Shown here piece after piece: positions 4,585 through 57,662 of a DNA stretch of 64,000 nt. The translations under genes and the position numbers were made by a program. Source of the stretch: an uncultured delta proteobacterium (GTDB lineage Bacteria; Desulfobacterota; RBG-13-43-22); contig CAVQSS010000006.1 of NCBI GenBank assembly GCA_963716045.1, forward strand, positions 1,743 to 65,742, read 5' to 3'. Within the stretch, counting starts at the first letter, position 1. Each line of letters starts with the position of its first letter. The notes under the pieces were generated by a model that saw only the letters and a list, made by a program, of their open reading frames with translations, was not told where the DNA came from and did no database searches.

Positions 4585-4679
4585 AAATTCGAATTCCGAA
4601 GTTCGAAATTCGAAACAAATTCAAATGTATTTTGAAAATTTGTGCTTGTTTCGGATTTCGTGCTTCGAATTTCGGATTT
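4585..4679. repeat. family D hairpin (AAATTCGAA / TTTCGGATTT tandem-unit arms)
   Basis: 34-nt arms (4585-4618 and 4646-4679) pair at 31/34 positions, counting 3 G-U pairs on the plus-strand RNA. The loop is 27 nt. Related units occur at 1733-1760, 18484-18530, 37430-37462 and 42040-42106. Confidence 0.75.
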
Positions 4680-8479: not shown

Positions 8480-8791
8480 AACACGAAAACAAAAGGCGTT
8501 TCTGGTTGCTGGTTTAAGGGAACGATAATGGATAACAGCCGAGTTTACGGTCTTTCGTAGGGGAGGGGCCTTCGGCGAGCCCTTCGACAAGCTTAGGGCC
8601 TTGAGTTTACCGAAAGGCTCAGGCGAGCCGTTAATCCCCTCCCGCCCCTCCCCCAACCACAGCCGGGCGGGTATAAAACCCGCCCCTACGAAAAACGCCA
8701 AATAGTCGAACATTGAACATCGAACGCCCAACATCGAATGAAAAACAAACGCTCATTGAACGTTCGATGTTGGAAGTTCGATGTTCGACGT
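8480..8791. repeat. repeat-filled convergent intergenic region, including a family C hairpin at 8705-8789
   Basis: Contains a TTGCTGGTT unit (8494-8516), a GGGGAGGGG...CCCCTCCC inverted segment, a GCGGGTATAAAACCCGC hairpin and the GTCGAACATTGAACATCGAACGCCCAAC hairpin. ORFs 8189-8734 and 8738-9022 are artefacts. Confidence 0.7.
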
Positions 8792-9834
8792 TCATTTCTT
8801 TTCTTTCAGGGTCGGGTCCAGGATTTCCACCTTGGCTTTTTTTCGGAGATCCGCCACGTATTCATTAACGGTCTTTTGAAATTTCTCATTTTTCATCTGG
8901 GCCTCGACCTGCTGGCGAACCTCCGCCAGAGGGGTCACTCCCGGGGGCTTTTTTCCGTAGACCAGGATCAGATGAAAACCGAACTGGGTCTCCACCACGG
9001 GACTGACCTCTCCCTCCTTTAGGGCAAAGGCCGCTGTTTCAAAGGCCGGGACCATCCGGCCTTTTCCAAAATATCCCAAATCGCCGCCCCGGGTCTTACT
9101 CGGGCAATCGGAATAGGTTTTGGCTAATTCGGAGAAATCTTTGCCGGCCTGGACTTCCTTAAGCACGGTTTCTATTTTTTCCTTGGCCTGCTTCTTTTGT
9201 TCCTCGGTGGCCTCCTTGGGCACCTGAATCAGGATGTGGCGTGCCCCTACCAGTTCTCCATGGCGATACCGCTCCTGATTGGCCTGGTAAGCCGCTTCCA
9301 GTTCCGCGTCGGTGACTTTCACCAGCGGCTGGATCTTCTGGCTGATGACGGCCCGGACATAAATATTCTTTTTAATATTGTCCCTGGCCTGGTCCATCGT
9401 CAGTCCCTCTTTGGTCAATTGCTCCTCGAATTTCTCCTTGGAACCGGCTTGTTTTTCAGCCGCTGTCCACATGGCCTCCACCTGCTTGTCCACTTCGGGG
9501 AGGTTCAAGCCCTTCCCTTCCTGATAAAGCAATTCCACGGCCACGAACTGGTCCAGGGCCTTGCGTCGAAGCGCTTCCGGGCCCTCTTTACCGCTTCCTT
9601 TTCTCCAAACTGGCGGCTCATTTCCCGAATCGTCATCTGCAGGTCCCGCTCGTAGATTTTCGTACCCTCAACCACCGCCACCGCCGCCTCGGCTTTGTCC
9701 GACGGGGTTTTTTCCTTGGGGGCGGGAGGGGTCTCCTGCGCCCAAACCGTAAAAGCCATCAAGATGCTCAGGACCCAGGATCCAACCCAAACCACACTTT
9801 GTACTTTTTTTGGCATAACCGCTCTCCATTCCAT
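8792..9834 (-). CDS. SurA/PpiC-type peptidyl-prolyl isomerase (parvulin), secreted; frameshifted at T-run 9587-9589
   Basis: Signal peptide VWVGSWVLSILMAFTVWA. Parvulin domain ARHILIQ...GGDLGYFGKGRMVPAFE...FGFHLILV. The two track ORFs join as ...EKEAVKEGPEALRRKALDQFVAVELLYQ... with one extra base in the run. The start may be Met at 9816. Confidence 0.75.
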
Positions 9835-10065
9835 GATTTCTTTGCCGGGCTGCTTTCGCCCAGGGATTTATTATAACCCATGCCGGAGGCAAAAAAAACC
9901 TTTTTGCAAAACAAAGTCAGATATGCTATTAGGATCAATTGCTTCGGATTAATCGACAATCTCTCCAACTAAAAGGCGTTGCAGGTTGCAAGTTACTGGT
10001 TGCCGGTTAAAGAGACGGATACTGGAGTAAAACCGAACTCCCCTGCGAAAAACGAAAAGAGGGCC

Positions 10066-11346
10066 ATGAAAAACCGAGTCGCCGGGTACTTTGACCCCCA
10101 GGGGGAAACCCTGGCCGTTGACCTTAAAAATGATTTCCAGCTCCGGAAGCTTGGTGAAATCCTTCCTCTGGCCTACCGGGGATCGGCGGCCGTCCGGGAA
10201 AATTTTGACCGCCTGGGCCTGAAAGCCGAAGAAATCCAATCTATCCGGGATCTGGAACGGATCCCGATCACCAAAAAATCGGAGTTGATTGCCATTCAGA
10301 AAGAGCGCCCGCCCTTCGGTGGACGCCTGACCCTTCCTTTAAACCAGCTTAAACGCATCTATGTTTCACCGGGACCCATATTCGACCCCTTGGGCCCAGG
10401 CCGGGCCGATCCCCGCTGCTGCAAGTGTGTTTTTGCCGCCGGAATCCGGCCGGGCGACCTGGTTCAGAATACTTTCTTGTATCATTTTACTCCGTTTGGG
10501 CTATATTTCGATGATGCCCTGGTGGAAATGGGCTGCACCGTAATCCCGGCCGGGGTAGGCAACACAGAACTTCAGGCCCAGGTCATGCAGGCCCTGAAGG
10601 TGAACGGCTATATCGGGACCCCCAGTTTTCTTAAAGCCATCATTGGACAAAGTGGTGGAGTTGGGGTTTGATCCGCAAAAGGACCTGGATTTAAAGTGGC
10701 GGTGGTAGGGGCCGAAATGCTGGCTGAATCCCTCCGGACCGAACTCGAATCCCGGGTGGGCCTGAAGGTCCGCCAGGCCTACGGTACGGCCGACGTGGGC
10801 CTGATCGGCCATGAGTGTCCGGAAAAAAACGGCTATCACCTGTTCGATATGGAAATGCTCTTCGAGGTGGTGGACCCTTCCACCGGACGGCAAATCCCCC
10901 CCGGGGAAATCGGAGAGCTGGTGGTCACCAGCTTCAATCCGGTGTATCCTCTGATTCGCTTCGGCACCGGGGACCTGACCGCCATCGACGATTCTCCCTG
11001 CCCCTGTGGCCGGACAGCTCCCCGTCTGAAAGGGTTGTACGGTCGAGTGGATCAGGTCACCAAGGTCCGGGCCATGTTCATCCATCCCAGCCAGGTGGAT
11101 CAGGTCATTGGCCGGAATCAGGAAGTAGCCCGTTGCCGGGTAGTCGTGACCCAGCAAAACCATCAGGATGAAATGAACTTTCAGATCGAACTGAAGGACG
11201 AGGCGATAGAACCAGAGCCGCTGCTTAAAAAAATGCGGGAAGATATCCGGGAAATCATGCGGCTCCGAGGCGAAGTGGTCATCGTACCCCGGGGGACCAT
11301 CCCCGCCGACGCCAAGAAGATCGAAGACCGGCGGAACTGGGAATGA
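10066..11346 (+). CDS. paaK: phenylacetate-CoA ligase (PaaK) family adenylate-forming enzyme, with two compensating frameshifts near 10641-10650 and 10693-10695
   Basis: Track ORFs 9979-10671 and 10696-11346 share one frame. Between the two shifts another frame reads LDKVVELGFDPQKDLDLK, which fits the family linker. Other motifs are IPITKKSELI, GTPSFL and CPCGRTAPRL. Confidence 0.8.
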
Positions 11347-11357
11347 GGGTTAACCGG

Positions 11358-11403
11358 TTAATAATTAACAATTAATTATTGATTATTGATAATTTGTCTT
11401 TTC
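11358..11403. repeat. family A AT-rich repeat
   Basis: ttaataattaacaattaattattgattattgataatttgtctttt, nearly identical to 5573-5616. Confidence 0.8.
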
Positions 11404-11421
11404 AGGAAAGGAAATCCAGCC

Positions 11422-12579
11422 ATGCAATATAGTCTGACAGAAGAACAGCTCATGCTAAAGGATATGGTCGGCCGATTGGCCAAGGAAAAGATCGCCCCCG
11501 GGGCGGCGGAGCGGGACGAAAAGGGGGAATTCGCCGCGGACATGGTGGAATTGTTTCGCGAAAACGGCCTTTTTGCCGCCGATTTTCCTAAGGAATACGG
11601 CGGGGAGGAAATGGGACTCCTGGCTTTGTGCCTGATTATCGAGGAGGTGGCCAAGGCCTGCGCCTCCAGCTCGCTCATCCTGGCCGTCCATGAACTGGGC
11701 ACCATGCCCATCTTTCTGGCCGGAAATAAAGCGCAGAAGGATAAATACTTCCCCAAACTGGCCACGGGTGAATATCTCGCGGCCTTTGGTCTGACCGAAC
11801 CGAATGCCGGATCCGATGTGTCCGGCCTGACCACCAAGGCCGTCCGGGACGGGGATCATTATGTCCTCAACGGCAGAAAAATTTTTATTTCCCACGGGGA
11901 CGTGGCCCAGGTGGTCTGCGTGGCCGCCAAAACCAACCTGGAGGTCCCCGGCCACAAGGGAATCAGCATGTTTATCGTGGAACAAGGGACCCCGGGCTTT
12001 ATCATCGGCAAGCATGAAAATAAAATGGGGATCCGAGGCTCCTCCACGGTGGAAATCATCCTGGAGGATGTGCGGGTGCCCCGGGAAAACCTGCTCGGTC
12101 AAGAGGGAATGGGCTTTACCATCCTGATGAAGACCCTCGATTTCACCCGTATCCCGGTGGCCGCCCAGGCCCTGGGCATCGCCCAGGGGGCCCTGGACTA
12201 CGCCATCAATTATACCAAGGAGCGCGTCCAGTTCGGGAAACCTGTTTTTGCCAATCAGGGCATCCAGTGGATGATCGCCGAAATGGCCGCCAAACTGGAG
12301 GCCGCCCGGCAACTGACCTACAAGGCCGCCGCCCTGTACCAGACTTTCCCCAAAAATTTAGACCGGATGACGGCCGAAGCCGTCCGCTATTCGGCCATGT
12401 GCAAAATGTTTGCCGCCGACATGGCCATGAGTGTGACCACCGATTGCGTCCAACTGCTGGGGGGTTACGGCTTTATCAAGGAATACCCGGTGGAACGGAT
12501 GATGCGGGACGCCAAGATCACCCAGATCTATGAAGGCACCTCGCAGGTGCAGAAGATGGTGATTGCTTCGACGCTCTAA
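11422..12579 (+). CDS. acyl-CoA dehydrogenase (short/medium-chain type)
   Basis: MQYSLTEEQ..., GLTEPNAGSD, and C-terminal YEGTSQVQKMVIA. The ATG at 11422 is preferred over the repeat-embedded start at 11386. Confidence 0.9.
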   Translation: MQYSLTEEQLMLKDMVGRLAKEKIAPGAAERDEKGEFAADMVELFRENGLFAADFPKEYGGEEMGLLALCLIIEEVAKACASSSLILAVHELGTMPIFLAGNKAQKDKYFPKLATGEYLAAFGLTEPNAGSDVSGLTTKAVRDGDHYVLNGRKIFISHGDVAQVVCVAAKTNLEVPGHKGISMFIVEQGTPGFIIGKHENKMGIRGSSTVEIILEDVRVPRENLLGQEGMGFTILMKTLDFTRIPVAAQALGIAQGALDYAINYTKERVQFGKPVFANQGIQWMIAEMAAKLEAARQLTYKAAALYQTFPKNLDRMTAEAVRYSAMCKMFAADMAMSVTTDCVQLLGGYGFIKEYPVERMMRDAKITQIYEGTSQVQKMVIASTL

Positions 12580-12582
12580 AGG

Positions 12583-12715
12583 CCGTGAGGCGTTAGGCGT
12601 GAGGAGTAAGGGGAAAAAACAACTTTAAGGAAAGAGGTTCTTTGCGCAGGTTGCCTGGTGATAAATTAGTCAGTCCGACTAAAACGCCTTGCTCCTTACG
12701 CCTTGCTCCTTACGG
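12583..12715. repeat. intercistronic long hairpin with tandem-unit arms (GGCGTGAG / CTTACGCC type)
   Basis: Arm 12583-12613 and arm 12687-12715 are complementary apart from a few transitions and mismatches. The spacer is ~73 nt. Confidence 0.7.
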
Positions 12716-12724
12716 GTTTTATCG

Positions 12725-13609
12725 ATGGAAATGATTCTGCAAATCATCGTCAGCGGCCTGGCCACCGGCGGAGTGTACGGATTGATCGCCCTGGGCTTTG
12801 TGCTGATTTACAAGGCCACCAGCGTCCTGAACCTGGCCATGGGCGATTTCATGACCCTGGGTGCCTTCATCTGCCTGACCGTTCTGGAAAAATTTCAGGC
12901 GCCCTTTTATGTGGCCTTCCTGGTTACCCTGCTCTGCGCCTTTATCATCGGAGTGGCCGTGGAACGGGTGATCCTCCGCCCGCTGATCGGGGAGCCGGTC
13001 ATTTCCGTCATCATGGTCACCATCGGTCTGGGCGTGATGTTGCGGGGGATCATGTACATGGTCTGGACCCCCGTCTTTCGGAACTTACCGGCCATATTTC
13101 CCCCCCAGCCGCTCAACCTGGGTTTTGCGATCGTCCCCTCCGGCCTGCTCTGGGGTTTTATCTTTGCCGTCATCGGGACCTTTGTCTTTCTTTTCATCTT
13201 TAAGTTCTCCCGGACCGGAGTGGCCATGCGGGCCACGGCCAACGACCAGCAGGCCGCCCAATCCATGGGCATCAGCGTCCGCTGGGTATTTGCCCTGGCC
13301 TGGAGCTTCGGCGCCATCGCTTCGGTGATCGGAGGGATCGTCATCGGCAATCTTTCCGGCATCAGCGTCTACATGGGGGATATCGGGCTCAAGGTGCTGG
13401 CCGTCATCATTCTCGGAGGATTGGACAGCATCGGAGGCGCCATCCTGGGGGGGTTCATTATCGGGGTCCTGGAAAACCTGGCCGGTTTCTATATCGATCC
13501 CCTGGTCGGCGGGGGAATAAAAAGCGTGGCCCCTTTCTTTTTTCTGGTGGTCATTCTGATGATCCGGCCCTATGGGCTGTTCGGGAAGAAATTGATCGAG
13601 CGGGTATAG
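12725..13609 (+). CDS. livH: branched-chain amino acid-type ABC transporter permease (LivH family)
   Basis: MEMILQIIVSGLATGGVYGLIALGFVLIY. Multi-pass membrane protein of typical length. Confidence 0.9.
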   Translation: MEMILQIIVSGLATGGVYGLIALGFVLIYKATSVLNLAMGDFMTLGAFICLTVLEKFQAPFYVAFLVTLLCAFIIGVAVERVILRPLIGEPVISVIMVTIGLGVMLRGIMYMVWTPVFRNLPAIFPPQPLNLGFAIVPSGLLWGFIFAVIGTFVFLFIFKFSRTGVAMRATANDQQAAQSMGISVRWVFALAWSFGAIASVIGGIVIGNLSGISVYMGDIGLKVLAVIILGGLDSIGGAILGGFIIGVLENLAGFYIDPLVGGGIKSVAPFFFLVVILMIRPYGLFGKKLIERV

Positions 13610-13751
13610 GTTTGTTGCTGGTTACTCGTTGCTGGTTACTGGATAAACAACCTAAATGAATTGTGATGAATCGAATTTTGGACAGGACTTCAATGGATTT
13701 TGTCTCCAATGACTACCAACCGGCAACCAACAACGTGCAACCAGCAACAGG
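13610..13751. repeat. intercistronic long hairpin with tandem-unit arms (TTGCTGGTTAC type)
   Basis: Arm 13610-13642 and arm 13716-13751 are complementary with 5 mismatches. The spacer is ~73 nt. Related half-units occur at 8494-8516 and 9972-10008. Confidence 0.7.
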
Positions 13752-13760
13752 TTCTTGATC

Positions 13761-14804
13761 ATGCGCTGCGGCGATTTTAAAGAATCATATATTCAGGACG
13801 ACGCCATTTTTCAGTCCGGATTCGTCAAGCTTTTTCTGGCCCTCTTTTTTGTTTTCCTCCTGGTCTTTCCCTTTGTGGCCAACGCCTACATGCTCTACCT
13901 GGCCAACATGATCGGATTTGCCGTCATCGGGGCCGTGGGGTTGAACCTGCTCACCGGCTTTACCGGGCAAATATCGCTGGGCCACTCGGCCTTTATCGGG
14001 GTGGGGGCCTATACCTCGGCCATCCTGATCACCAAACTGGGCTTCTCCTTCTGGCTGTCGCTGCCCTTCGCCGGGCTGGTCTCGGCCCTGGCCGGTCTGA
14101 TCATCGGCCTCCCTTCCCTGCGGGTCAAAGGCCTGTATCTCTGCATCGCCACTCTGGCCTCCCAATTCATTCTCGAATTTATTTTTGTGCACTGGGAATC
14201 CATGACCAAGGGGATCACCGGCATTCATATTCCAGCCCCCCAGATCGGCGGTTTCATTTTTTCTACCGAGAAAAAGTTCTATTGGATCACCCTGTTTTTT
14301 GTCATCATCGCCGTGGCCTATGCCCGAAATCTCGTTCGCTCCCGTATGGGCCGGGCCTTTGTGGCCATCCGCGACCGGGACCTGTCGGCCGAAATTATCG
14401 GTATCGATCTCCTGCGATACAAATTGAGCGCCTTCGCCATCAGTTCCTTTTATGCCGGCGTGGCCGGCGCCCTCTGGGTAAGTTTCCTGAAGGTGGTCAC
14501 CCCGGAGCATTTTCCCTTTATCCTGAGCATCCAATTCCTGGCCATGATCATCATCGGGGGAATGGGCAGCATCCTGGGCTCGATCTTCGGCGCCATCTTC
14601 ATGACCATTGTCCCGGAATTTCTGGGCTATGCGGCCACGGTGGTGAAGACGCAGGCGCCCGGGTATGATCAGTTGTTCATTCCCATGAAAGAAGTGATCT
14701 TCGGGGGATTGATTATCCTTTTCCTGATCTTTGAGCCTCATGGACTGGCGGAAATCTGGAACCGTATCAAGAGCGTCTTTCGACTGTGGCCGTTTTCATA
14801 TTAA
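13761..14804 (+). CDS. livM: ABC transporter permease (LivM family)
   Basis: LNLLTGFTGQISLGHSAFIGVGAY motif. Start is ATG 13761 or TTG 13755. Confidence 0.9.
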   Translation: MRCGDFKESYIQDDAIFQSGFVKLFLALFFVFLLVFPFVANAYMLYLANMIGFAVIGAVGLNLLTGFTGQISLGHSAFIGVGAYTSAILITKLGFSFWLSLPFAGLVSALAGLIIGLPSLRVKGLYLCIATLASQFILEFIFVHWESMTKGITGIHIPAPQIGGFIFSTEKKFYWITLFFVIIAVAYARNLVRSRMGRAFVAIRDRDLSAEIIGIDLLRYKLSAFAISSFYAGVAGALWVSFLKVVTPEHFPFILSIQFLAMIIIGGMGSILGSIFGAIFMTIVPEFLGYAATVVKTQAPGYDQLFIPMKEVIFGGLIILFLIFEPHGLAEIWNRIKSVFRLWPFSY

Positions 14805-15303
14805 ACCAGGATTTGGGGCACCTGCCCCAAATCCTGGGATAAAGGCCCTTCAAAAAGACAAATTATTAACAATTATTAATTAAGAATTGATTATTGATTA
14901 TTGGCCAAAAGGTGCCCTCGACTTTATTTACATACTAACCCTCAGGCCCGGGGTGGGCACCCTCGAAGCATGAAAATTTAACCGTTAGATATCCCAGCTT
15001 GTCATCCTGAGCCCTTCGCCTGCTGTCATCCTGAGCGAAGCGAAGGATCTCGTCTTTCGGCTCAGGATAAACTCCGCGAAGGATCTCGTCTTTCGAGCCC
15101 AAAGCTTGCCAGGGGATTCTTCAGAATGACAGTTGCTGGTTATTTACATACTAAACCCAGGCTTCGGGGCCCCTGTCCCCAAGCCTGAAAATAAAAGGGG
15201 GAGACATAAGCCTAACTGCCTGACATTAATAATCAATAATCAATTGTCAATTATTAATTAATCTATAATGTAAACAACCAACCAAAGGAGGAGGGTATTC
15301 ATT
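14805..15303. repeat. 500-nt intercistronic gap packed with repeats
   Basis: Contents in order: a 13-bp perfect hairpin (14806-14837), family A (14853-14902), a GGCCAAAAGGTGCC...CATACTAACCC-hairpin-CATGAAAAT module (14897-14978), family B units (14992-15132), a second CATACTAAACCC module (15143-15192) and family A (15225-15262). Confidence 0.75.
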
Positions 15304-16473
15304 ATGAAAAAAGCGTTACTGTTTGTCATGGTTATGGTGATCTTCCTGGGCGTCTCCCAGATCGTCCAGGCCCAGCAGACCTACACCCTGGGGGCGGTGC
15401 ACCCCTTTACCGGCCGCTTTGCCTTTGCCGGCGTTCACGGCCAGGATGCCATGAAGGACGCCGTGGACATGACCAACGAGGCCGGGGGCATCAACGGCAA
15501 GAAGCTGCAGTATTTCTGGAAGGACGGCGAATACAAGGACGATGTGGGCATTGCCGCCTTCAAAAGCCTCTACACTCAGTACAAACCTCAGATCATGTGG
15601 GGCCAGAGCACCGGCATGACCAAGGCCCTGGGACCGGAGATCAAAGACCGTTATAAGGTGCTGTATTCGGCCTACACCTTTGCCGATGTGGCCGCCAACC
15701 CCAAGGAAAACCCCTATCTGTTCATTCCCGGCCCGACGTATGCGGAAATGTTTGCCGTGCTGCTCAATTACATCGCCAAACAGAAACCCGGGGCGAATGT
15801 GGCCTTCTTTTACAGCGACACCGAATTCGGTCGGGAACCCATTGCCTTCGGCCGGGAGTATGCCAAAAAATTGGGCTTGAAAGTCGTGGCCGAAGAAGTG
15901 ACCAAGGCGGGAGGGGTGGACGTGACCACCAATATCCTGAACATGAAGCAGAAAAACGTGGAATTTTGTATTTTTCAGGGCTATGTGAACGACCCCATTG
16001 CCCAGGTGATGAAACAGTCCAAGGATTACGGGCTGAAGTGTCAGTTCATGGGTACCTTCTGGTCCACCGAAAAACACCTGCTGGATTCGCTGGGCCCTCT
16101 GTCCGATGAATATATCGGGGTCACGGCTTATTCCTTCTATTATCAGGACCAGTACCCCATGATCAAGAAGATTCGGGATTGGGTTCAGAAGCACAACCCC
16201 AAGGGCGCCGACTACCGATCCCAGGCCTACATGCAGGTCTTTATGGGCACCACCCTGATGATCGAGGCCCTCAAGCGGGCGGACAAAGCCGGACCGGTGA
16301 CCGGCGACAGCCTGGTCAAGGCCCTCCAGTCCATCAAGAATTTCGACGTGGGCGGATTGATGCCGCCGGTGACCATCAAGGGCAACAGCATCCCGGTGGG
16401 GCGGGTAGTCAAGGGGAATTCCAAGACCGGCAAGTTTGATCCCATTACGGATTGGATTATTTTAGACCTGTAA
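15304..16473 (+). CDS. ABC transporter substrate-binding protein (LivJ/K-like, periplasmic)
   Basis: AAAGGAGGAGG SD. Signal peptide MKKALLFVMVMVIFLGVSQIVQA. Type I periplasmic binding fold length (389 aa). Confidence 0.9.
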   Translation: MKKALLFVMVMVIFLGVSQIVQAQQTYTLGAVHPFTGRFAFAGVHGQDAMKDAVDMTNEAGGINGKKLQYFWKDGEYKDDVGIAAFKSLYTQYKPQIMWGQSTGMTKALGPEIKDRYKVLYSAYTFADVAANPKENPYLFIPGPTYAEMFAVLLNYIAKQKPGANVAFFYSDTEFGREPIAFGREYAKKLGLKVVAEEVTKAGGVDVTTNILNMKQKNVEFCIFQGYVNDPIAQVMKQSKDYGLKCQFMGTFWSTEKHLLDSLGPLSDEYIGVTAYSFYYQDQYPMIKKIRDWVQKHNPKGADYRSQAYMQVFMGTTLMIEALKRADKAGPVTGDSLVKALQSIKNFDVGGLMPPVTIKGNSIPVGRVVKGNSKTGKFDPITDWIILDL

Positions 16474-16557
16474 GGGTGTAGGACGCAGGGGGTAGGGGGT
16501 AGGGCTGAGGGGAATTCCCCTACACCCCACACCCCACACCCCCAACCCCCAACCCTC
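16474..16557. repeat. G-tract / C-tract inverted element centred on GGGGAATTCCCC
   Basis: Plus strand GGGGGTAGGGGGTAGGGCTGAGGGG (16488-16512) is followed by CCCCTACACCCCACACCCCACACCCCCAACCCCCAACCC (16517-16555). Confidence 0.7.
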
Positions 16558-16561
16558 AAAA

Positions 16562-18478
16562 ATGGCGAATATGACTGAATCCATTAAAACCCTCCCGGGC
16601 CTGCTGAAACGCAACGCCCGGGAGTTCGGGCCGGATAAAGTGGCCCTGCGCGAGAAGGAATTCGGTATCTGGCAGTCCGTTTCCTGGCAGGACTATTTCG
16701 ACCGGATTCGAAGCCTGGCCTTAGGCCTGGTGGAACTGGGGTACGAGAAAGGCGATAAGCTCTCGGTCATCGGGGACAATCGCCCGGAGTGGCTCTATTC
16801 GGAACTGGCCATCCAGGCCTTAGGAGGGGCGGTGGTCGGGATTTACCCTGACAGCCACCTGGAGCAGGTCCGCTATATCATCGACCACTCCGATTCGGTA
16901 TTCATCATGGTGGAGGACCAGGAACAGACCGACAAGATCCTGAACATGATCGATGAGATCCCCAAGGTCAAGAAAGTTATCGTGGATGACCAGAAAGGGA
17001 TGCGCCGCTACGACCACCCGTTGCTCATTCCCCTCATGCGGGTCCTGGAGATGGGCCGGGAGGCGGACCGAAAAGATCCCGCGCTTTTTGACCGGATTCT
17101 GGATCAGGTCAGCGAAGAGGACGTGGCCATGATCCTTTATACCTCGGGGACGACGGGCCTGCCCAAAGGGGTGATGCTCACCCACCGCAACATGGTTCGG
17201 ATGATCGAAAATTTCGATCAGGTGGACCCGGCCTTCCCGACCGACAATCACGTCTCTTTTCTGCCCTTGCCCTGGGTGGGCGAACAGGCCACCGCCGTGG
17301 CCTGGAACCTGTACAAGGGCGTGACCATCAATTTTCCGGAAAAAGTGGAAACCGTCTCCGTGGACATTCGGGACATCGGTCCGAACCTCCTGCTGGCGCC
17401 GCCCCGCCACTGGGAAAAGATGTGTTCCGACATCCAGGTCAAGATCCAGGATGCGGCCTGGATCAAGCGCTTCCTTTATAAACGCTGCATGCCCGTCGGC
17501 TACCGGATGGCTGAATTTCGACTGAAAGGGACCCGACCCGGGGTTCTTTACACCCTGCTGGACAAGGCCTGTTACCTGCTGCTGTTCCGCTCGCTGAAGA
17601 ATTATCTGGGGCTGACCAACCTGCGGAATGTCTACACTGGCGGGGCCCCCATCGGGCCGGAGGTTTTTAATTTTTTCATGGCCCTGGGCATCAACATCAA
17701 GCAGCTTTACGGGCAGACCGAGGTCACCGGCCTGGCCGTGGGACACCGCAACGAAAACGTAAAATTGAATACCGTCGGCGCTCCCATGCCGGAAGTGGAA
17801 CTGAAAATTTCGGATGTGGGAGAAATCCTGATCCAAGGACCGATCGTTTTTAAAGGCTATTACAAAAACGAGGAGGCCACCCGCAAAACCCTGGACGCGG
17901 AAGGGTGGGTCCATACCGGCGATGAAGGCCTCCTGGATGAAGACGGCCAACTGGTCATGATCGACCGGCAGAAAGACGTGATGCGTCTGGGAGACGGCAG
18001 CAAGTTTTCCCCCCAGCTTATTGAAAACAAGTTGAAATTCAGCCCGTATATCAACGAAGCCATGGTGGTGGGCAAGGATCGCCCTTACATCGCGGCCCTG
18101 ATCATCATGGATCTGGGCAACATGGGCAAATGGGCGGAAAACCACAAGATGACCTTTACCACCTTTACCGATCTCTCCCAGAAACCGGAAGTCTACGACC
18201 TGATCGCCGAAGAGATTCGGCAGATCAACCGGTCCCTGCCCAAGGTGGCCCGGGTGAAGCGCTTCGTAATGCTCTATAAGGAATTGGACGCCGACGACGA
18301 CGAGATGACCCGGACCCGAAAGCTCCGGCGGGGCTTCGTGGCCGAACGCTACGCCAATCTGATCGAGGCCCTTTACGAAGACCAGGAGGAACTGGCGGTG
18401 GAGTCCGAGATCCGCTATCAGGACGGGACCGGGTTTACCATGAAGACCCAAGTCAGGATCAAAGAGGTTAAGGACTAA
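16562..18478 (+). CDS. AMP-binding long-chain acyl-CoA synthetase family protein
   Basis: YTSGTTGLPKGV (AMP-binding motif), GQTEVTG and TGDEG. Length 638 aa. Confidence 0.85.
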   Translation: MANMTESIKTLPGLLKRNAREFGPDKVALREKEFGIWQSVSWQDYFDRIRSLALGLVELGYEKGDKLSVIGDNRPEWLYSELAIQALGGAVVGIYPDSHLEQVRYIIDHSDSVFIMVEDQEQTDKILNMIDEIPKVKKVIVDDQKGMRRYDHPLLIPLMRVLEMGREADRKDPALFDRILDQVSEEDVAMILYTSGTTGLPKGVMLTHRNMVRMIENFDQVDPAFPTDNHVSFLPLPWVGEQATAVAWNLYKGVTINFPEKVETVSVDIRDIGPNLLLAPPRHWEKMCSDIQVKIQDAAWIKRFLYKRCMPVGYRMAEFRLKGTRPGVLYTLLDKACYLLLFRSLKNYLGLTNLRNVYTGGAPIGPEVFNFFMALGINIKQLYGQTEVTGLAVGHRNENVKLNTVGAPMPEVELKISDVGEILIQGPIVFKGYYKNEEATRKTLDAEGWVHTGDEGLLDEDGQLVMIDRQKDVMRLGDGSKFSPQLIENKLKFSPYINEAMVVGKDRPYIAALIIMDLGNMGKWAENHKMTFTTFTDLSQKPEVYDLIAEEIRQINRSLPKVARVKRFVMLYKELDADDDEMTRTRKLRRGFVAERYANLIEALYEDQEELAVESEIRYQDGTGFTMKTQVRIKEVKD

Positions 18479-18483
18479 CCAAA

Positions 18484-18530
18484 CATATTTGAATTTATGG
18501 CTCAAATTCGAAACTCGAAATCCGATTTGA
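18484..18530. repeat. family D unit (AAATTCGAAACTCGAAATCCGATTT)
   Basis: Short hairpin TTTGAATTT...AAATTCGAA plus family D units, between the acyl-CoA ligase gene and livG. Confidence 0.55.
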
Positions 18531-18548
18531 AGAAGTAAGGTTATTATA

Positions 18549-19373
18549 ATGACTCAGGCCCAAAATCCCTACTCCCCCGATGAATATCAATTGATCATTG
18601 AGGATATCACTCTGACCTTCGGGGGGATCAACGCCCTTTCCGGGGTCAGCACCGGGGTAAAGAAGGGAGAAATCTTCGCCATTATCGGGCCCAACGGGGC
18701 CGGAAAAACCTGTATCCTCAACTGCATCAACCGCTTTTATCATCCCGAACAGGGGCGGATCCTCTTTGAAGGCCTGGAGATCACCCAGGCCAAGGCCCAT
18801 AAAATCGCCCAACTGGGGATCGCCCGGACCTTCCAGAATGTGGAGCTTTTCGGCCACATGACGGTGATGGACAATATTAAACTCGGCCGCCATGTCCATT
18901 TGAAGTCCGGTTTTCTCTCCGGTGGAATTTATTACGGCAAAACCCGACGGGAAGAGATGGCCCTGCGAAAAGAGATCGAAGAAACGATCATCGATTTGCT
19001 GGAAATCGAGGCCATCCGCAAACGGACCGTCCATACGCTGCCCTACGGGCTGCAGAAGCGGGTGGAGCTGGCCCGGGCCCTGGCCATGAAGCCCAAACTG
19101 CTCCTGCTGGACGAACCGGCCACCGGCATGAACCTGGAGGAAACGGAAGACATGGCCCGTTTTATCCTGGACATCAACGATGAATGGGGGGTGACCATCA
19201 TCCTGATCGAGCACGACATGGGCATGGTCATGGACATCAGCGACCGGATCTGCGTCCTCGATTTCGGGCGCAAGATTGCCGAGGGCCCTCCCCAGGAAAT
19301 CCGGCACAATCCGCAGGTCATCCAGGCCTATCTGGGAGAGGAAACGCTGGCTTACTCGCGGTTGGGCGCTTAG
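18549..19373 (+). CDS. livG: ABC transporter ATP-binding protein (LivG family)
   Basis: Walker A GPNGAGKT, signature LPYGLQKRVE, Walker B LLLLDEP. Confidence 0.9.
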   Translation: MTQAQNPYSPDEYQLIIEDITLTFGGINALSGVSTGVKKGEIFAIIGPNGAGKTCILNCINRFYHPEQGRILFEGLEITQAKAHKIAQLGIARTFQNVELFGHMTVMDNIKLGRHVHLKSGFLSGGIYYGKTRREEMALRKEIEETIIDLLEIEAIRKRTVHTLPYGLQKRVELARALAMKPKLLLLDEPATGMNLEETEDMARFILDINDEWGVTIILIEHDMGMVMDISDRICVLDFGRKIAEGPPQEIRHNPQVIQAYLGEETLAYSRLGA

Positions 19374-19573
19374 CGCGGAGCGCAGAGCGCAGAGAGAAAG
19401 ACGCAGAGCGCAGGGCGCAGAGCGCGGAGCGCCGGAGGAAAAAATAAATGAAAGATGACTTCAAGCCGGTGCCATGAAATCGCAAAAATGCAAAACAATA
19501 TCTTTTGATTTTTTTTTTAATGGTTTTTACGCCCTGCGCTCTGCGCTCCGCGCTCCGCGCTCCGCGTTTTTTT
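19366..19573. repeat. intercistronic long hairpin with GCGCAGA/GCGCGGA tandem-unit arms, ending in a T7 run
   Basis: Arm 19366-19432 overlaps the livG stop. Arm 19530-19566 is complementary and is followed by TTTTTTT (19567-19573), 10 nt before the livF ATG. The spacer is ~95 nt and AT-rich. Confidence 0.7.
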
Positions 19574-19583
19574 AGGCGAAGCC

Positions 19584-20387
19584 ATGGATCCTATACTGGT
19601 CGTCAACAATATCGAAGTCATCTACCATAACGTCATCCTGGTCTTGAAGGGGCTTTCCCTGCAGGTCCAGGAAGGCCAGATCGTGACCGTCCTGGGCAGC
19701 AACGGGGCCGGGAAGACCACTACCTTGAAGGCCATTTCCGGCTTGCTGAAATCCGAAGACGGGGCCGTAACCGACGGCAGCATCACCTTTATGGGCCAGC
19801 GCATCGACCGTCTTTATCCGGAGCAGATTGTGCGCAGGGGCATTTTCCAGGTCATGGAAGGCCGCCGGGTTTTCGACGAATTGAATATCGAGGAAAACCT
19901 GATTGCCGGGGCCCACACCAATAAAAATAAAAAGAAAATGAAAGACGACATCGAGGTGGTTTACCACTACTTCCCCCGGTTGAAGCAGCGCCGCACCGTC
20001 CAGGCCGGCTATATCAGCGGGGGGGAGCAGCAGATGCTGGTCATCGGCCGCTGCCTCATGGCCAACCCCAAACTGATGCTGCTCGACGAACCCTCCATGG
20101 GTCTCGCCCCCCTGTTAGTGGGCGAGATCTTCGAGATCATCAAGCGGATCAACCGGGAGCGGGGGGTGACCATCCTGCTGGTGGAACAGAATGCCCGACT
20201 GGCTCTCTCCATTGCCCACCACGGCTACGTGATGGAAACCGGGCGGATCGTCCTGGACGACACGGTGGAGAAACTAAAAGAAAACGCCGATATCAAGGAA
20301 TTCTATCTCGGTTTGACGGAGGTGGGGAAAACCAAAAGTTACCGGGACGTGAAGCACTATAAGCGTCGCAAGCGCTGGCTGGCCTGA
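19584..20387 (+). CDS. livF: ABC transporter ATP-binding protein (LivF family)
   Basis: Walker A GSNGAGKTT, signature ISGGEQQML, Walker B LMLLDEPS. Confidence 0.9.
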   Translation: MDPILVVNNIEVIYHNVILVLKGLSLQVQEGQIVTVLGSNGAGKTTTLKAISGLLKSEDGAVTDGSITFMGQRIDRLYPEQIVRRGIFQVMEGRRVFDELNIEENLIAGAHTNKNKKKMKDDIEVVYHYFPRLKQRRTVQAGYISGGEQQMLVIGRCLMANPKLMLLDEPSMGLAPLLVGEIFEIIKRINRERGVTILLVEQNARLALSIAHHGYVMETGRIVLDDTVEKLKENADIKEFYLGLTEVGKTKSYRDVKHYKRRKRWLA

Positions 20388-20460: not shown

Positions 20461-20497
20461 AAAAAAAAGGCCTCCAACCGAGCCTTGGAGGCCTTTT
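20461..20497. terminator. bidirectional rho-independent terminator between convergent livF and pilin genes
   Basis: A8, then a 9-bp stem GGCCTCCAA / TTGGAGGCC, then T4. Confidence 0.7.
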
Positions 20498-30164: not shown

Positions 30165-30257
30165 CTGGAGTAGAGGAGTAATGGAGTAATGGAGTGCTGC
30201 CTTGAAAACAATACTCCAGTACTCCAACACTCCAATACTCCGACACTCCAATACTCC
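30165..30257. repeat. long hairpin with GGAGTAAT / ACTCCAAT tandem-unit arms
   Basis: Four GGAGTrnT units (30165-30199) face five ACTCCrAy units (30209-30257). It sits between convergent genes. Confidence 0.7.
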
Positions 30258-31332: not shown

Positions 31333-31370
31333 ATCGGACCGATCGGTCGGATCCGACCGATCGGTCCGAT
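31333..31370. repeat. 38-nt perfect palindrome between the YcaO and YkgJ genes
   Basis: atcggaccgatcggtcgga|tccgaccgatcggtccgat, which is its own reverse complement. It is built from CGGWCCGAT units and has no flanking T-run. Confidence 0.85.
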
Positions 31371-31390
31371 CATTATTGGGTTTTCACCGT

Positions 31391-37408: not shown

Positions 37409-37558
37409 TTGTTTCGGCCTTCGACGGACTCAGTCGAGTCGATTTCGTGTTTCGGATTTATAGGTTTTTATTAAACCCCCAGGCCCCGCCTAAGGGACAC
37501 CCGTGATTCATGAAAATAGTTTATCTATTCGTTGTTTCGTAGCTACGAAACCAGATAA

Positions 37559-39053: not shown

Positions 39054-39112
39054 ACGTACCTTGACTATCCGAAACACCTTTGAACGGTTCTTAAAAAGGC
39101 ACCAAAACTGGT

Positions 39113-39350
39113 TATTGTCATTCTGAGTACATTCGCTTCGCTCAGTATGAACTCCGCGAAGAATCTCTGGTTTTCAACAAGTCACGATATCAGATCCTTC
39201 CCGAGTCTATTCTGAGCCGAAGACCGAGATCCTTCGCGGAGTCTACCCCGCTGGGAGGTCCGAGATCCTTCGCTTCGCTCAGGATGACAAGAGCGGGGCT
39301 CAGGATGACAGGCGAAGGACTCAGGATGACCAACGCGGGGCTCAGGGTGA
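39113..39350. repeat. family B repeat cluster
   Basis: GTCATTCTGAG, CTCAGGATGAC and GAGATCCTTCGC units repeated about 6 times. Confidence 0.75.
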
Positions 39351-39365
39351 AAAAGGAAGGGGTTA

Positions 39366-42039: not shown

Positions 42040-42106
42040 AGAACATTTGAATTTCGGATTTTCGAGCTTGTTTCGGATTTCGTACTTCGAATTTCGAATT
42101 TGAAGT
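42040..42106. repeat. family D repeat
   Basis: tttgaatttcggattttcgagcttgtttcggatttcgtacttcgaatttcgaatttgaag. Confidence 0.7.
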
Positions 42107-43472: not shown

Positions 43473-43567
43473 CGTATCCCCAACCGGCCCTCTCTCTTTT
43501 TTCTCTCTTCTGTTTCTTCTCTTCCTCTCTCTGTTTCTCTTCTTCTTCTTTCTCTTCCCTCTTCGTC

Positions 43568-44274
43568 TTAACTTTCCCCCAAATATGCCCGACGAACGGC
43601 ATCCTGGGCCAGCAGATCCGGCCCTTTTCCTTCCAGGACAATCCGGCCGATCTCCAGCACGTACGCGTAATCGGCTACTTCCAGCGCCCCCCAGGCATTT
43701 TGCTCGATGAGCAGAATGGTGGTCCCCGCCTCATGTATTTTCCGGATCACACCGAAAACCTCGGCCACCAACTGGGGCGCCAGTCCCAGCGAAGGTTCAT
43801 CCATCATCAGTAGCTTTGGGGAGGCCATCAGGGCCCGACCCAGGGCCAACATCTGCTGTTCCCCTCCGGAAAGGGTCCCGGCCCGCTGACGCTTCCGGTC
43901 TTCCAACCGGGGGAATACGGAGTAAACCCACTCCAGGTCTTTTTTAAAGGCAGCATCCCGCGGGCGGGAGTAGGCCCCCAGTTTCAGGTTTTCCAGGACT
44001 GAAAGATTGGAAAAGACCTTGCGCCCCTCCGGCACCAGGCTGATGCCCAACCGAGTGATGTCATGGACCGGCTTCCGGGTTATTTCCTGTCCCTGGAAGG
44101 ATATCCTCCCCCCACCGGGCGCACCAGGCCGGCCACCGTCCGCAGGGTCGTACTTTTCCCGGCCCCGTTGGCCCCGATCAAAGTGACGATTCGTCCTTGG
44201 GGGACCTTGAAAGAGATACCCTTCAGGCCTTCGATACCCTGATAGCGGACCTGGAGATCAGTGACTTCGAGCAC
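43568..44274 (-). CDS. livF: ABC transporter ATP-binding protein (LivF family), frameshifted in C-run 44109-44114
   Basis: Walker A GANGAGKST lies in ORF 44080-44274. LSGGEQQML and LLMMDEPS lie in ORF 43568-44050. They join as ...RPVGG(G)RISFQGQEITRKPVHDITRLGISLVPEGR. Confidence 0.8.
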
Positions 44275-44293
44275 GGGGTGGATTGGTTCTTTC

Positions 44294-44634
44294 TAATTAG
44301 TAATTAAGAATTGACTATTGATTATTGGCCCCGGTGCCGGTTAAGGAGGCCATTTTCGCACTAAACCCCCCATGCCCCAGGGGGGGCACACCAACGCATG
44401 AAACTATCCGGCATACTGGTCATTGCGAGAAAGAGAAGCGACGAAGCAATCCCCCAGTTAGATTACAACGCTCCCCAAGCTCATCGGGGGATTGCTTCGC
44501 TTCGCTCGCAATGACGGGAGGGGGCGGCCACCCCAAATGAACGTCGAACATTGAACATCGAACGCCCAACTCCGAATGAAAAACAACCCTCCATTAAACA
44601 TTCGATGTTGGAAGTTCGATGTTCGACGTTCCTA
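44294..44634. repeat. composite repeat region
   Basis: Contents: family A (44294-44327), a diverged GGCC..GGTGCC...ACTAAACCCC...GCATGAAA module (44326-44412), the inverted repeat CATTGCGAG...GGGGATTGCTTCG...CTCGCAATGAC (44420-44515) and a family C hairpin (44543-44627). Confidence 0.7.
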
Positions 44635-45422
44635 CTAATTCCCTATTCCGGCAGCCCTTTTTTGCTTCCTCCCCAGATAGGCCTCGATCACCCGGGGGTC
44701 ATGCTGAATTTCCCGGGGTGTTCCCTCGGCAATCGTGGCCCCATAGTCCAGGACCTTCACCCATCGCAGAGCCCGGCCACAAAGCGCATATCGTGTTCGA
44801 TCACCAGGACGGACAGGTCAAAATCACGGCGGATTTGACGGATAAGATCCATCAGCCCCTCAGTTTCCCTGGGGTTCATGCCGGCGGCCGGTTCATCCAA
44901 CAGTAGTAGTTGCGGCCGGGTGGCCAGGGCCCTGGCGATCTCCAGCTTCCGCTGCTGGCCGTAGGTCAGGGAGCGGGCCGGGGCTTCCGCCTTCTCCGCC
45001 AGTCCCATCCGTTCCAGGATACCCCGAGCCTCGCGCTGCATGGATCCCTCTTCCTGGCGATAGCGGGGGTATTGGAAAACCGCCCCCCAGAAAGAGGATC
45101 GCAGGCGGCCGTGAAAGGCCATCAAAACGTTTTCCAGCACGGTCATCTCCGGCAGCAGGCGGATGTTCTGAAAGGTACGTCCTATTCCCTCCCGGCAAAC
45201 GGCGTGGGGCGGCCAGCCGGTAATCTCCCGGCCGTTGAAACGGATCAGCCCAGTCCGGGGTTTCAGTACTCCGGTAATCAGATTGAACACCGTAGTTTTT
45301 CCGGCCCCGTTCGGTCCGATCAGCCCCATGATCTTCCCCAAACCCACCTGCCAGGAAAAATCGTTGACGGCCATCAGCCCTTCAAATGAAAGCGTCAGGT
45401 GACGGATCTCCAGCAGGGTCAT
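44635..45422 (-). CDS. livG: ABC transporter ATP-binding protein (LivG family), frameshifted at C-run 44760-44762
   Basis: MTLLEIRHL..., Walker [10 protein letters not shown], signature [17 protein letters not shown]. The C-terminus [30 protein letters not shown] lies in another frame. The ATG overlaps the livM stop. Confidence 0.8.
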
Positions 45423-48616: not shown

Positions 48617-48816
48617 TCATTAATAATTAACAATTGATTATCTAATTATTAACAATTTGTCTTTTTGAAGGGCCTTATTTTCATGCTTCGGGGTGCCCAC
48701 CCCGGACATGGGGGTTAGTATGTAATAAACGATGGCACCTTTTGGCCAATAATCAATAATCAACTCTTGATTTTTAATTAATAATTAACAATTGATTATT
48801 GATTATTAATAATTTG
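48617..48816. repeat. composite repeat: family A (48620-48666), inverted copy of the CATACTAACCC/GGCACCTTTTGGCC module (48668-48745), family A double copy (48747-48816)
   Basis: 48668-48745 is about 85% identical to the reverse complement of 14897-14975. Confidence 0.8.
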
Positions 48817-53377: not shown

Positions 53378-53410
53378 CCCCTAAAGCTGTTGTTTTCATA
53401 CCAAACGAAA

Positions 53411-53484
53411 ATTGAACATCGAACATCGAACGCCCAACCTCGAATAGGGGAAAAATAATTAATAATTAATTGTTAATTATTAAC
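53411..53484. repeat. partial family C unit (53411-53447) plus family A repeat (53455-53484)
   Basis: attgaacatcgaacatcgaacgcccaacctcgaat followed by taattaataattaattgttaattattaac. Confidence 0.7.
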
Positions 53485-57506: not shown

Positions 57507-57662
57507 TATTGTCATTCTGAGCGAATGCGAAGAATCTTGTTTTTTCAACAGGTTGCAAAATCCTTCGCGGAGTTTACCCTGAGCCGAAAGACGAGATCCT
57601 TCGCTTCACTCAGGATGACAGGAGGCGAAGGGCTCAGGATGACAAGCGAAGGGTCCAGAATA
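57507..57662. repeat. family B repeat cluster
   Basis: gtcattctgagcgaatgcgaagaatct..., gagatccttcgcttcactcaggatgacag..., ctcaggatgacaag. Confidence 0.75.

Follow-up and report, generated by a model that had tools for sequence, protein, structure and literature searches.

Heptamer repeats, known for decades from the STRR sequences, occur in excess in many bacterial genomes, but we know of no accepted origin or function for them. The cyanobacterial STRR heptamers were reportedly described by Mazel in 1990 and by Vioque in 1997, and the latter is said to place an STRR inside the RNase P RNA. Intergenic DNA of both Xanthomonas and Nostoc is enriched in heptameric repeats, and Xanthomonas carries 70 to 75 cases per genome of two convergent GGGAATC arrays (G-rich array first) that are capable of forming a stem-loop and whose length differs between species while their type is kept (Rehm et al. 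2015, PMC4692102). Geobacter metallireducens has paired sites, in classes of 24, 21 and 8 pairs, made of 3 to 5 tandem octa- or heptanucleotide units with the members of a pair on opposite strands at a variable distance; one such paired site lies between proB and proA, and binding of IHF/HU was guessed (Aklujkar et al. 2009, PMC2700814). Heptamer arrays (STRR, TAACTGA) occur in cyanobacteria and Beggiatoaceae, the TAACTGA arrays of the latter being intergenic, and relatives without arrays have shorter spacers (MacGregor, PMC4679880). The 3' protective hairpin of malE-malF is established and also occurs in four other Escherichia coli ATP-binding cassette (ABC) transport operons (Dar & Sorek 2018, PMC5927463). 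Here we analyzed a 64-kb stretch of DNA from an uncultured, Desulfomonilaceae-like delta proteobacterium (the window; 16% intergenic), in which the cistron junctions of a PaaK-acd-liv operon carry long hairpins with tandem-repeat arms. We favor, with moderate confidence, the reading that these hairpins are local members of lineage-wide intergenic heptamer arrays that are turned over at the DNA level, the hairpin between livK and the ligase gene being protective and the others passengers.

Tandem arrays were called by Tandem Repeats Finder (TRF) and by an independent period scan of the window, and RNAfold z-scores were computed against 200 dinucleotide shuffles. Junctions were compared with loci fetched from metagenome-assembled genomes (MAGs), metagenomes and other genomes, designated by L-numbers and amounting to 2.1 Mb of sampled sequence. 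A Pfam scan of the operon proteins confirmed the gene order PaaK-like, acd, livH, livM, livK, ligase (lig), livG and livF. The operon genes and their junction elements, with the folding free energy (dG) and z where computed, are as follows.

9979-10671 and 10696-11346, PaaK-like gene, in two open reading frames (ORFs)
11386-12579, acyl-CoA dehydrogenase gene (acd), stop codon at 12577-12579
12577-12721, + strand, acd-livH hairpin (dG -65.9, z -6.4)
12725-13609, livH
13611-13751, + strand, livH-livM hairpin (z -3.9)
13761-14804, livM
14806-14837, + strand, livM-livK stem-loop, 14-bp stem and 4-nt loop, without repeat arms (z -6.9)
14861-15269, + strand, composite element in the livM-livK spacer
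15304-16473, livK, periplasmic binding protein gene
16473-16557, + strand, livK-lig hairpin (z -2.8)
16562-18478, lig, AMP-binding ligase gene
18504-18525, + strand, lig-livG spacer array, solo, of AAATTCG-type heptamers
18549-19373, livG
19360-19583, + strand, livG-livF hairpin (dG -102.4, z -4.9)
19584-20387, livF
20465-20497, 3' of livF, likely operon terminator, a conventional short GC-rich hairpin with flanking A and T runs, not heptamer-built

Hairpins had been described at five operon loci and three outside loci in an earlier, sequence-only reading of this DNA, and all were confirmed, the outside loci having z-scores of -8.2, -7.7 and -6.9. For every listed hairpin, 0 or 1 of 200 shuffles folded equally well. 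The arms had been described as tandem copies of a 7- to 14-nt unit, but the period was 7 nearly everywhere (14 being twice 7), the exceptions being two outside elements at 30166-30257 (8 nt) and 31333-31371 (9/18 nt). The period scan detected 28 arrays of period 7 in the window, 27 of them intergenic, compared with 12 of period 6 (1 intergenic and 11 coding), 4 of period 8 and none of period 9 or longer. Similarly, TRF detected some 30 arrays throughout the window, with periods of 7, 14 or 21 and many different units, and reported such periods at all four repeat-armed operon hairpins. At least 10 different heptamer units were present within 64 kb, unlike the few fixed units of STRR1-3, TAACTGA and GGGAATC. 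Where heptamer arms were paired, they were 74 to 91% complementary, with loops of 4 to 325 nt and z-scores from -2.8 to -8.2. A depletion of arrays in divergent (promoter) spacers was seen only as a trend (1 of 7 versus 17 of 37 spacers; Fisher p = 0.21). Because period-7 arrays were found window-wide and almost exclusively between genes, the operon hairpins are part of a genome-wide heptamer-array population and not an operon-specific device.

The arms had also been called locus specific, which was not established. No paralogs of the acd-livH, livH-livM and livK-lig arms were found in the 2.1 Mb of fetched loci, and the operon hairpins shared no common consensus of the kind that defines REP/BIME elements. 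In contrast, three classes recurred. The TCGAACA class has arms and spacer common to 8690-8810 and 44520-44650 (the second full hairpin being at 44539-44631), with partial copies at 2650-2710 and 53390-53450; the AAATTCG arm class was found again at 42066-42101 and in L071; and AT-rich ATTAATA/ATTGATT arrays occupied at least 8 places in the window. Within L001, GCGCRGA arrays were present at two different junctions. Overall, these analyses showed that the 7-nt period is specific and confined to intergenic DNA, that each arm changes copy number alone and that whole elements can be multicopy. Most arrays appear as two complementary, convergent arrays with the G- or purine-rich one first, which would place them with the paired-heptamer-repeat (STRR-like) kind.

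The construction of the individual operon hairpins was as follows. The acd-livH hairpin has a 5' arm of CGTGAGG-type heptamers (12582-12611) and a 3' arm (12687-12715) consisting of a perfect 14-mer, ACGCCTTGCTCCTT, in 2.2 copies at 100%; TRF also reported period 7 in 3.0 copies for this hairpin, and the helix base of the hairpin runs from the acd stop codon to 4 nt short of the livH ATG (12725). The livH-livM arms, at 13613-13642 (GTTGCTG/GTTACTC) and 13720-13749 (CAACCAG), are 83% complementary. The livK-lig arms lie at 16474-16512 (NNNNAGG/AGGGGGT heptamers) and 16517-16557 (CCCCACA/CCCCAAC). In the livG-livF hairpin, a 5' arm of AGCGCAG in 8.7 copies (19366-19432) begins within the last livG codons and is followed by a 97-nt spacer (19433-19529), a 3' arm of GCGCTCC in 4.4 copies (19530-19566) and a T7 run (19567-19573), with the helix base reaching the livF ATG (19584). 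The array in the lig-livG spacer has no partner arm, and the spacer forms no hairpin (RNAfold z +0.5). RNAfold predicts helix bases that connect the upstream stop codon with a point 0 to 10 nt from the next ATG. Transcribed hairpins would enclose the whole spacer and leave stop and next start 0 to 10 nt apart across the helix base, and such a closing stem-loop, by keeping stop and start spatially adjacent, may explain why hairpins are tolerated at junctions that are coupled in relatives. A clear Shine-Dalgarno sequence was not evident on direct reading before livH, livM, the ligase gene or livF. The window has GGGCGCTTAG as its last livG codons (19340-19373) and L001 has GGGCGCGTAA, but genomes carrying other livG-livF arrays have GGGAGCGTAA or GGGAGCATAA; synonymous sites at the livG end look as if they had been homogenized towards the adjacent GCGCNNA array.

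The operon order was kept in MAG and metagenome loci with a ligase 58 to 97% identical to that of the window, but the junction sequences were not. A comparison of orthologous junctions had been proposed as a search for compensatory changes; in relatives with an 83 to 97% identical ligase, the same junctions contained heptamer hairpins with different units, or nothing. At livK-lig, the units were GGGTGTA/CCCCACA in the window and L001, NNCGAGG/CCTCGNN in L081 (97% amino acid identity) and L083, and AGGCAYG/CCTTGCG in L002, L025 and L082. At livG-livF, the arms were GCGCAGA, AAGGTNC, TAGCTCA or CACAAAG, and L003 had a TGATG stop/start overlap. The livH-livM element was absent from L001, where TAG abuts ATG. 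The lig-livG spacer measured 70 nt in the window and 199 nt, with a different repeat, in L001, and the two genes overlapped in L081. Among relatives, the usual junction lengths were -29 to +28 nt for lig-livG and -1 to +11 nt for livG-livF, and livH-livM ranged from 0 to 350 nt and was tight in several lineages. The acd-livH, livH-livM and livG-livF hairpins occupy junctions at which relatives have tight or overlapping genes, and they are most likely tolerated passengers that are at most modulatory. Hairpins at lig-livG and livG-livF are lineage-specific gains.

Elements were gained, lost or swapped as sharp cassettes, being present, absent or replaced among genomes only 8 to 12% divergent. 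One case was the livK-lig hairpin, which together with the first ~9 ligase codons was replaced as a sharp cassette between the window (16460-16590) and L081 (1720-1880), while the flanks stayed ~92% identical to the edge of the replacement. In L081 the cassette looks like the one in L083, a more distant locus, and this conflicts with the gene tree. The window and L001 share unit types at livK-lig and livG-livF, with array lengths differing by indels. For this pair the distance at 4-fold sites was 0.257, and the shared hairpin arms were 73 to 87% identical, with many array-length indels. As the identity of arms and spacers approximated that of 4-fold sites, the sequences drift at a roughly neutral rate. 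Furthermore, each arm behaved as an array of its own: a perfect 14-mer duplication makes up the 3' arm at acd-livH, and the arms can pair in several registers with similar scores.

Heptamer arrays were also observed without partners and in other hosts. The livH-livM spacers of L003, L090, L091, L092, L093, L097, L098 and L112 contain solo arrays of the GGATTGC/GGAATGC type, which in many lineages stand directly after the livH stop codon; a GGAWT-like core is shared with the published repeats GGGGATT of Nostoc and GGGAATC of Xanthomonas. Inverted heptamer-array hairpins were present in unrelated fetched genomes as well, including L065 (12837-12952; Oscillochloris sp.), L125 (several), L071 and L022; in a Chloroflexi isolate, for example, four TTGAATG units face four TTCAACA units. 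Some unit classes were reused at several loci of a single genome, such as GAGAATT in L125.

In the window and its relatives taken together, the stems of 22 junction hairpins contained 506 Watson-Crick pairs and 34 transversion mismatches. An A·C mismatch on the sense strand corresponds to a G·U pair on the antisense strand, and no sense-strand excess of G·U was found in these stems (47 G·U versus 39 A·C; p = 0.45). Nor did the sense strand fold better, the antisense fold being equal or superior at 3 of 4 operon junctions. Nothing in the stem mismatches or folds therefore marked the sense transcript as the selected molecule. A terminator scan flagged no + strand terminator-like site at any junction hairpin, and a T7 tail was present only in the livG-livF element, behind a stem with a 97-nt loop. 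Rfam yielded no matches at the gathering threshold, and a scan by E value returned only far sub-threshold eukaryotic miRNA-precursor models, that is, generic long hairpins.

Because units are replaced, divergence is approximately neutral and a sense-strand G·U bias is lacking, most elements look like DNA-level products rather than conserved RNAs. The arrays could be reshaped by replication slippage of 7-nt units, the arms could be kept complementary by palindrome-templated (template-switch) copying, and whole-element copy-paste together with short-patch recombination could spread and swap the elements. The sequence-only reading had proposed an RNA-level role comparable to that of REP/BIME elements and, as an alternative, a repeat-generating mechanism. 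For the acd-livH, livH-livM and livG-livF hairpins, the tightness of these junctions in relatives, element turnover, divergence close to that of 4-fold sites and the lack of a wobble bias speak against the RNA role, and the alternative fits better; the RNA role survived at livK-lig only.

The livK-lig junction was distinguished by a survey of structure in 47 syntenic operons, in which the livM-livK spacer served as a control. The livK-lig spacer was strongly structured in 44 of the 47 (94% with z < -2; median z, -4.6), compared with a median z of -0.3 and 17% below -2 for the control. Its length was almost always 55 to 300 nt, and the structures were stems of 10 to 22 bp, unrelated in sequence, that lay a few bases past the livK stop codon and in most cases lacked a U tract. 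They were heptamer-built in the clade of the window and again in L109 and L115. These results showed that this operon family conserves a strong stem-loop directly after livK. Since structure is conserved without sequence, as is expected of the malE-malF type, the heptamer hairpin at livK-lig most likely acts as a 3' protective structure that would stabilize the livK segment of the mRNA over the downstream genes. A conserved structural need can thus be filled by sequences that are wholly replaced between near relatives, and the livK-lig case warns against the use of sequence conservation as a way to find such elements.

The polarity of the arms was examined in inverted heptamer pairs that were picked from 161 sequences without reference to strand. 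In 23 pairs the 5' arm was the purine-rich one and in 2 the pyrimidine-rich one, with 11 neutral pairs; after removal of homologues, the purine-rich arm was first in ~17 versus 2 (p = 7e-4). The G/purine-first polarity was identical on both strands, which indicated that it is a property of the element itself, and it was seen across unrelated genomes, in the sampled Desulfobacterota and other MAGs as well as in Xanthomonas in the literature. A possible reason is selection against an exposed C-rich, G-poor arm, which would be a Rho loading site; a directed generating mechanism is another possible reason. The polarity rule is a concrete, testable clue to the origin or tolerance of heptamer repeats.

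Several points weigh against the reading of the hairpins as passively tolerated products of DNA turnover with one protective member. Slippage alone predicts neither the pairing of complementary arrays nor the position of the G/purine-rich arm, so that the polarity rule points to transcript selection or to a directed mechanism that this account leaves unspecified. Arrays were present in 7 of 7 operon spacers (11347-19583) but in 6 of 25 other co-directional spacers, a post hoc comparison suggestive of something beyond passive tolerance. The livG-livF spacer was slightly better kept between the window and L001 (80%) than 4-fold sites (74%). The copy numbers of the "unique" arms are based on 64 kb of the source genome only, the ancestral livH-livM junction may have been either tight or filled, and every RNA-level step in this organism is one that we infer.

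A rival proposal is that all of the junction hairpins are selected, REP/BIME-like RNA elements tuning segmental mRNA stability, processing or translational coupling, with sequence free, structure alone selected and slippage providing only the raw material. Such selection could account for the strong folds at every element, for a hairpin design that outlasts complete replacement of sequence at the same junctions, for the occupancy of the operon spacers (7/7 versus 6/25) and, through the transcript, for the G-first polarity. In other lineages, structure is also seen in roughly half of those lig-livG and livG-livF spacers that are expanded, and there is a precedent for multiple protective hairpins in one operon (PMC5927463). 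However, most relatives have tight or overlapping junctions at lig-livG and livG-livF, and several lineages have a tight livH-livM junction. Close relatives differ in whether they carry an element, as in L001 without a livH-livM element, divergence proceeds at a neutral rate, and ~19% of stem positions are mismatched without a sense-strand excess of G·U. Solo arrays exist as well, both at 18504-18525 and in the livH-livM spacers of other lineages. On balance, we consider selection of all the junction hairpins as RNAs unlikely.

We regard it as quite doubtful that the hairpins are small nonautonomous mobile elements, resembling MITEs or REPs, with heptamer arrays as terminal inverted repeats, and that a transposase or RAYT-type enzyme favoring the stop/start junction put them in place. 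The TCGAACA class is truly multicopy, with both arms and spacer conserved; recurrence is also seen for the AAATTCG and AT-rich classes; close relatives differ by sharp, cassette-like changes; other, plainly dispersed small repeats share the junctions; and Geobacter has insertion sequence elements at fixed distances from its paired sites (PMC2700814). On the other hand, the acd-livH, livH-livM and livK-lig arms lack paralogs in the sampled 2.1 Mb, and comparison of the empty livH-livM site of L001 (GGGTTTAG followed by ATGCG) with the filled site of the window revealed no duplicated bases that would represent a target-site duplication. The arrays begin at or inside the stop codon, with the first unit merging with the gene end (from 19366 onwards), and the TAAGG units at livK-lig and acd-livH likewise blend into the gene end. 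For one junction to have received four or more different elements, it would have to have been hit independently several times. Beside the hairpins no transposase was seen, although no search was aimed at transposases.

The polarity, combined with the strict 7-nt register, could alternatively mean that the hairpins are written by a dedicated mechanism or maintained for a factor that reads 7-nt steps, which we rate as a long shot. Templated heptamer addition at both 3' ends of a break is one possibility and would give exactly such polarity and symmetry. If this were true, the operon junctions would be programmable sites at which a structure-only element is continually rewritten.

It is highly improbable that the elements are DNA-level binding platforms for IHF/HU or another nucleoid or global regulator, or platforms on single strands for a cold-shock protein or another protein whose footprint is 7 nt. 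They do match the Geobacter class 1-3 sites, which have 3 to 5 tandem units in opposite-strand pairs at variable distance and include the proB-proA site, and the Geobacter GTTGCTYN unit resembles the livH-livM arm GTTGCTG/GTTACTC (PMC2700814). A GGAWT-like core recurs across phyla (PMC4692102), CspB takes one heptamer per domain (cited in PMC4679880), and stem mismatches without strand bias agree with a role at the DNA level. However, units that differ wholly between loci and between relatives make a single sequence-specific protein unlikely, sequence evolution is at the neutral rate, and the Geobacter assignment is itself a guess. Random low-complexity sequence, which the sequence-only reading had itself named as what would overturn it, or an assembly artefact, conceivable in what is probably a MAG with low-complexity arms, is effectively refuted by folds that at most 1 of 200 shuffles equals, by a specific period confined to intergenic DNA (27 of 28 period-7 arrays) and by homologous elements in the independent assemblies L001, L081-L083, L002 and L025.

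The livM-livK spacer contains elements of other kinds. The stem-loop at 14806-14837, which had been listed as having the same architecture as the other hairpins, has no tandem-repeat arms and belongs to a small dispersed family, ACTAAMCC-(variable 12- to 14-bp stem-loop)-(CAT)GAAAAT, that is frequently found beside AT-rich heptamer arrays and for which no Rfam match was found. The copy after livM shows two compensatory pair changes between the window and L001 on one side and L081 on the other. The composite element that follows has AT-rich heptamer arms at 14861-14903 and 15225-15269, 91% complementary across 32 nt, and nested inside them are two further ACTAAMCC hairpin copies and one GTCATCCTGAGC element; ~213 nt of the composite is an insertion relative to L081. 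This insertion includes a copy of a GTCATCCTGAGC...GAAGGATCTC repeat family, another copy of which fills the L001 lig-livG junction. The dispersed copies and the hairpins outside the operon are as follows.

14800-14843, 14934-14977, 15150-15192, 37470-37517, 44360-44406 and 48677-48719 (the last on the - strand), ACTAAMCC family, window
L081 277-318 and 411-454, L002 377-427 and 7094-7141, ACTAAMCC family, other loci
14995-15135, 2170-2350, 39080-39360 and 57510-57660 in the window and L001 11946-12083, GTCATCCTGAGC...GAAGGATCTC family
4585-4679, + strand, AAATTCG/TTTCGGA heptamer hairpin between two co-directional genes (z -8.2)
8706-8793, TCGAACA/GTTCGAT heptamer hairpin between convergent genes, orthologous to L001 2324-2409
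30166-30257, GGAGTAAT/CAATACTC hairpin of 8-nt units between convergent genes (z -7.7)
31333-31371, - strand, palindrome of ATCGGACCG 9-mers, period 18 (z -6.9)

Similarity searches with BLAST matched window positions 43632-44971 (- strand) and 48634-48805 to the L001 livF/livG regions (65 to 69% nucleotide identity over 240 to 307 nt), pointing to another possible ABC cluster of the liv type on the minus strand. Junctions near this putative cluster also hold AT-rich heptamer arrays and ACTAAMCC hairpins, and at 43489-43568 two minus-strand genes are separated by a long CT-rich, polypyrimidine tract whose periodicity is 21/35 nt. In the PaaK-like gene, an AMP-binding_C_2 match was present in the second ORF only (10696-11346); the split into two ORFs is also present in L001, which makes a sequencing error unlikely.

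The operon is a compact natural experiment, in that the same six junctions can be compared over a graded series of relatives, and one of them needs a stem-loop where the others merely tolerate one. The sequence-only reading had known of no described class with this construction, but paired inverted hepta- or octamer arrays have been published for Xanthomonas (PMC4692102) and G. metallireducens (PMC2700814). The likeness to Xanthomonas is close: the arrays are heptameric, tandem and nearly all intergenic, they lie mostly between co-directional genes near the upstream 3' end, convergent pairs have the G-rich arm first, and length is polymorphic while type is preserved. In Xanthomonas, however, one G-quadruplex-capable consensus is used genome-wide, whereas here the units vary by locus and by relative. 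Geobacter shares a Desulfobacterota-type deltaproteobacterial host, 3 to 5 tandem units of 7 to 9 nt in opposite-strand pairs, some intercistronic positions, the lack of sites in a sister species and a GTTGCTYN unit like the livH-livM arm; it differs in having three or four classes of 8 to 24 pairs each, and neither a hairpin nor an RNA reading was proposed there.

STRR and TAACTGA repeats resemble these arrays in their 7-nt period, intergenic location and variable copy number, and a translational or posttranscriptional role has been suggested for them, but they are mostly solo direct arrays of a few fixed units, with an inverted pair in only 1 of 170 sets in the Maribeggiatoa genome. With REP/BIME elements and the malE-malF hairpin, the operon shares a stable stem-loop just 3' of the gene for the substrate-binding protein, and conservation over 47 operons is a feature of the livK-lig structure here. 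REPs are a conserved palindrome family of ~35 nt with hundreds of copies, linked to RAYT transposases, whereas these hairpins share no consensus and are built of heptamer arrays; stabilization is suggested by analogy. Like MITEs, the elements are small and intergenic, have inverted-repeat ends, show insertion polymorphism and include some multicopy classes; unlike them, they revealed no target-site duplication, their arms consist of repeats in arrays that change length independently, and most operon arms are not multicopy in the sampled sequence. Overall, the elements are of a known but understudied kind, paired heptamer arrays, found here in a new lineage and with units of unusual diversity.

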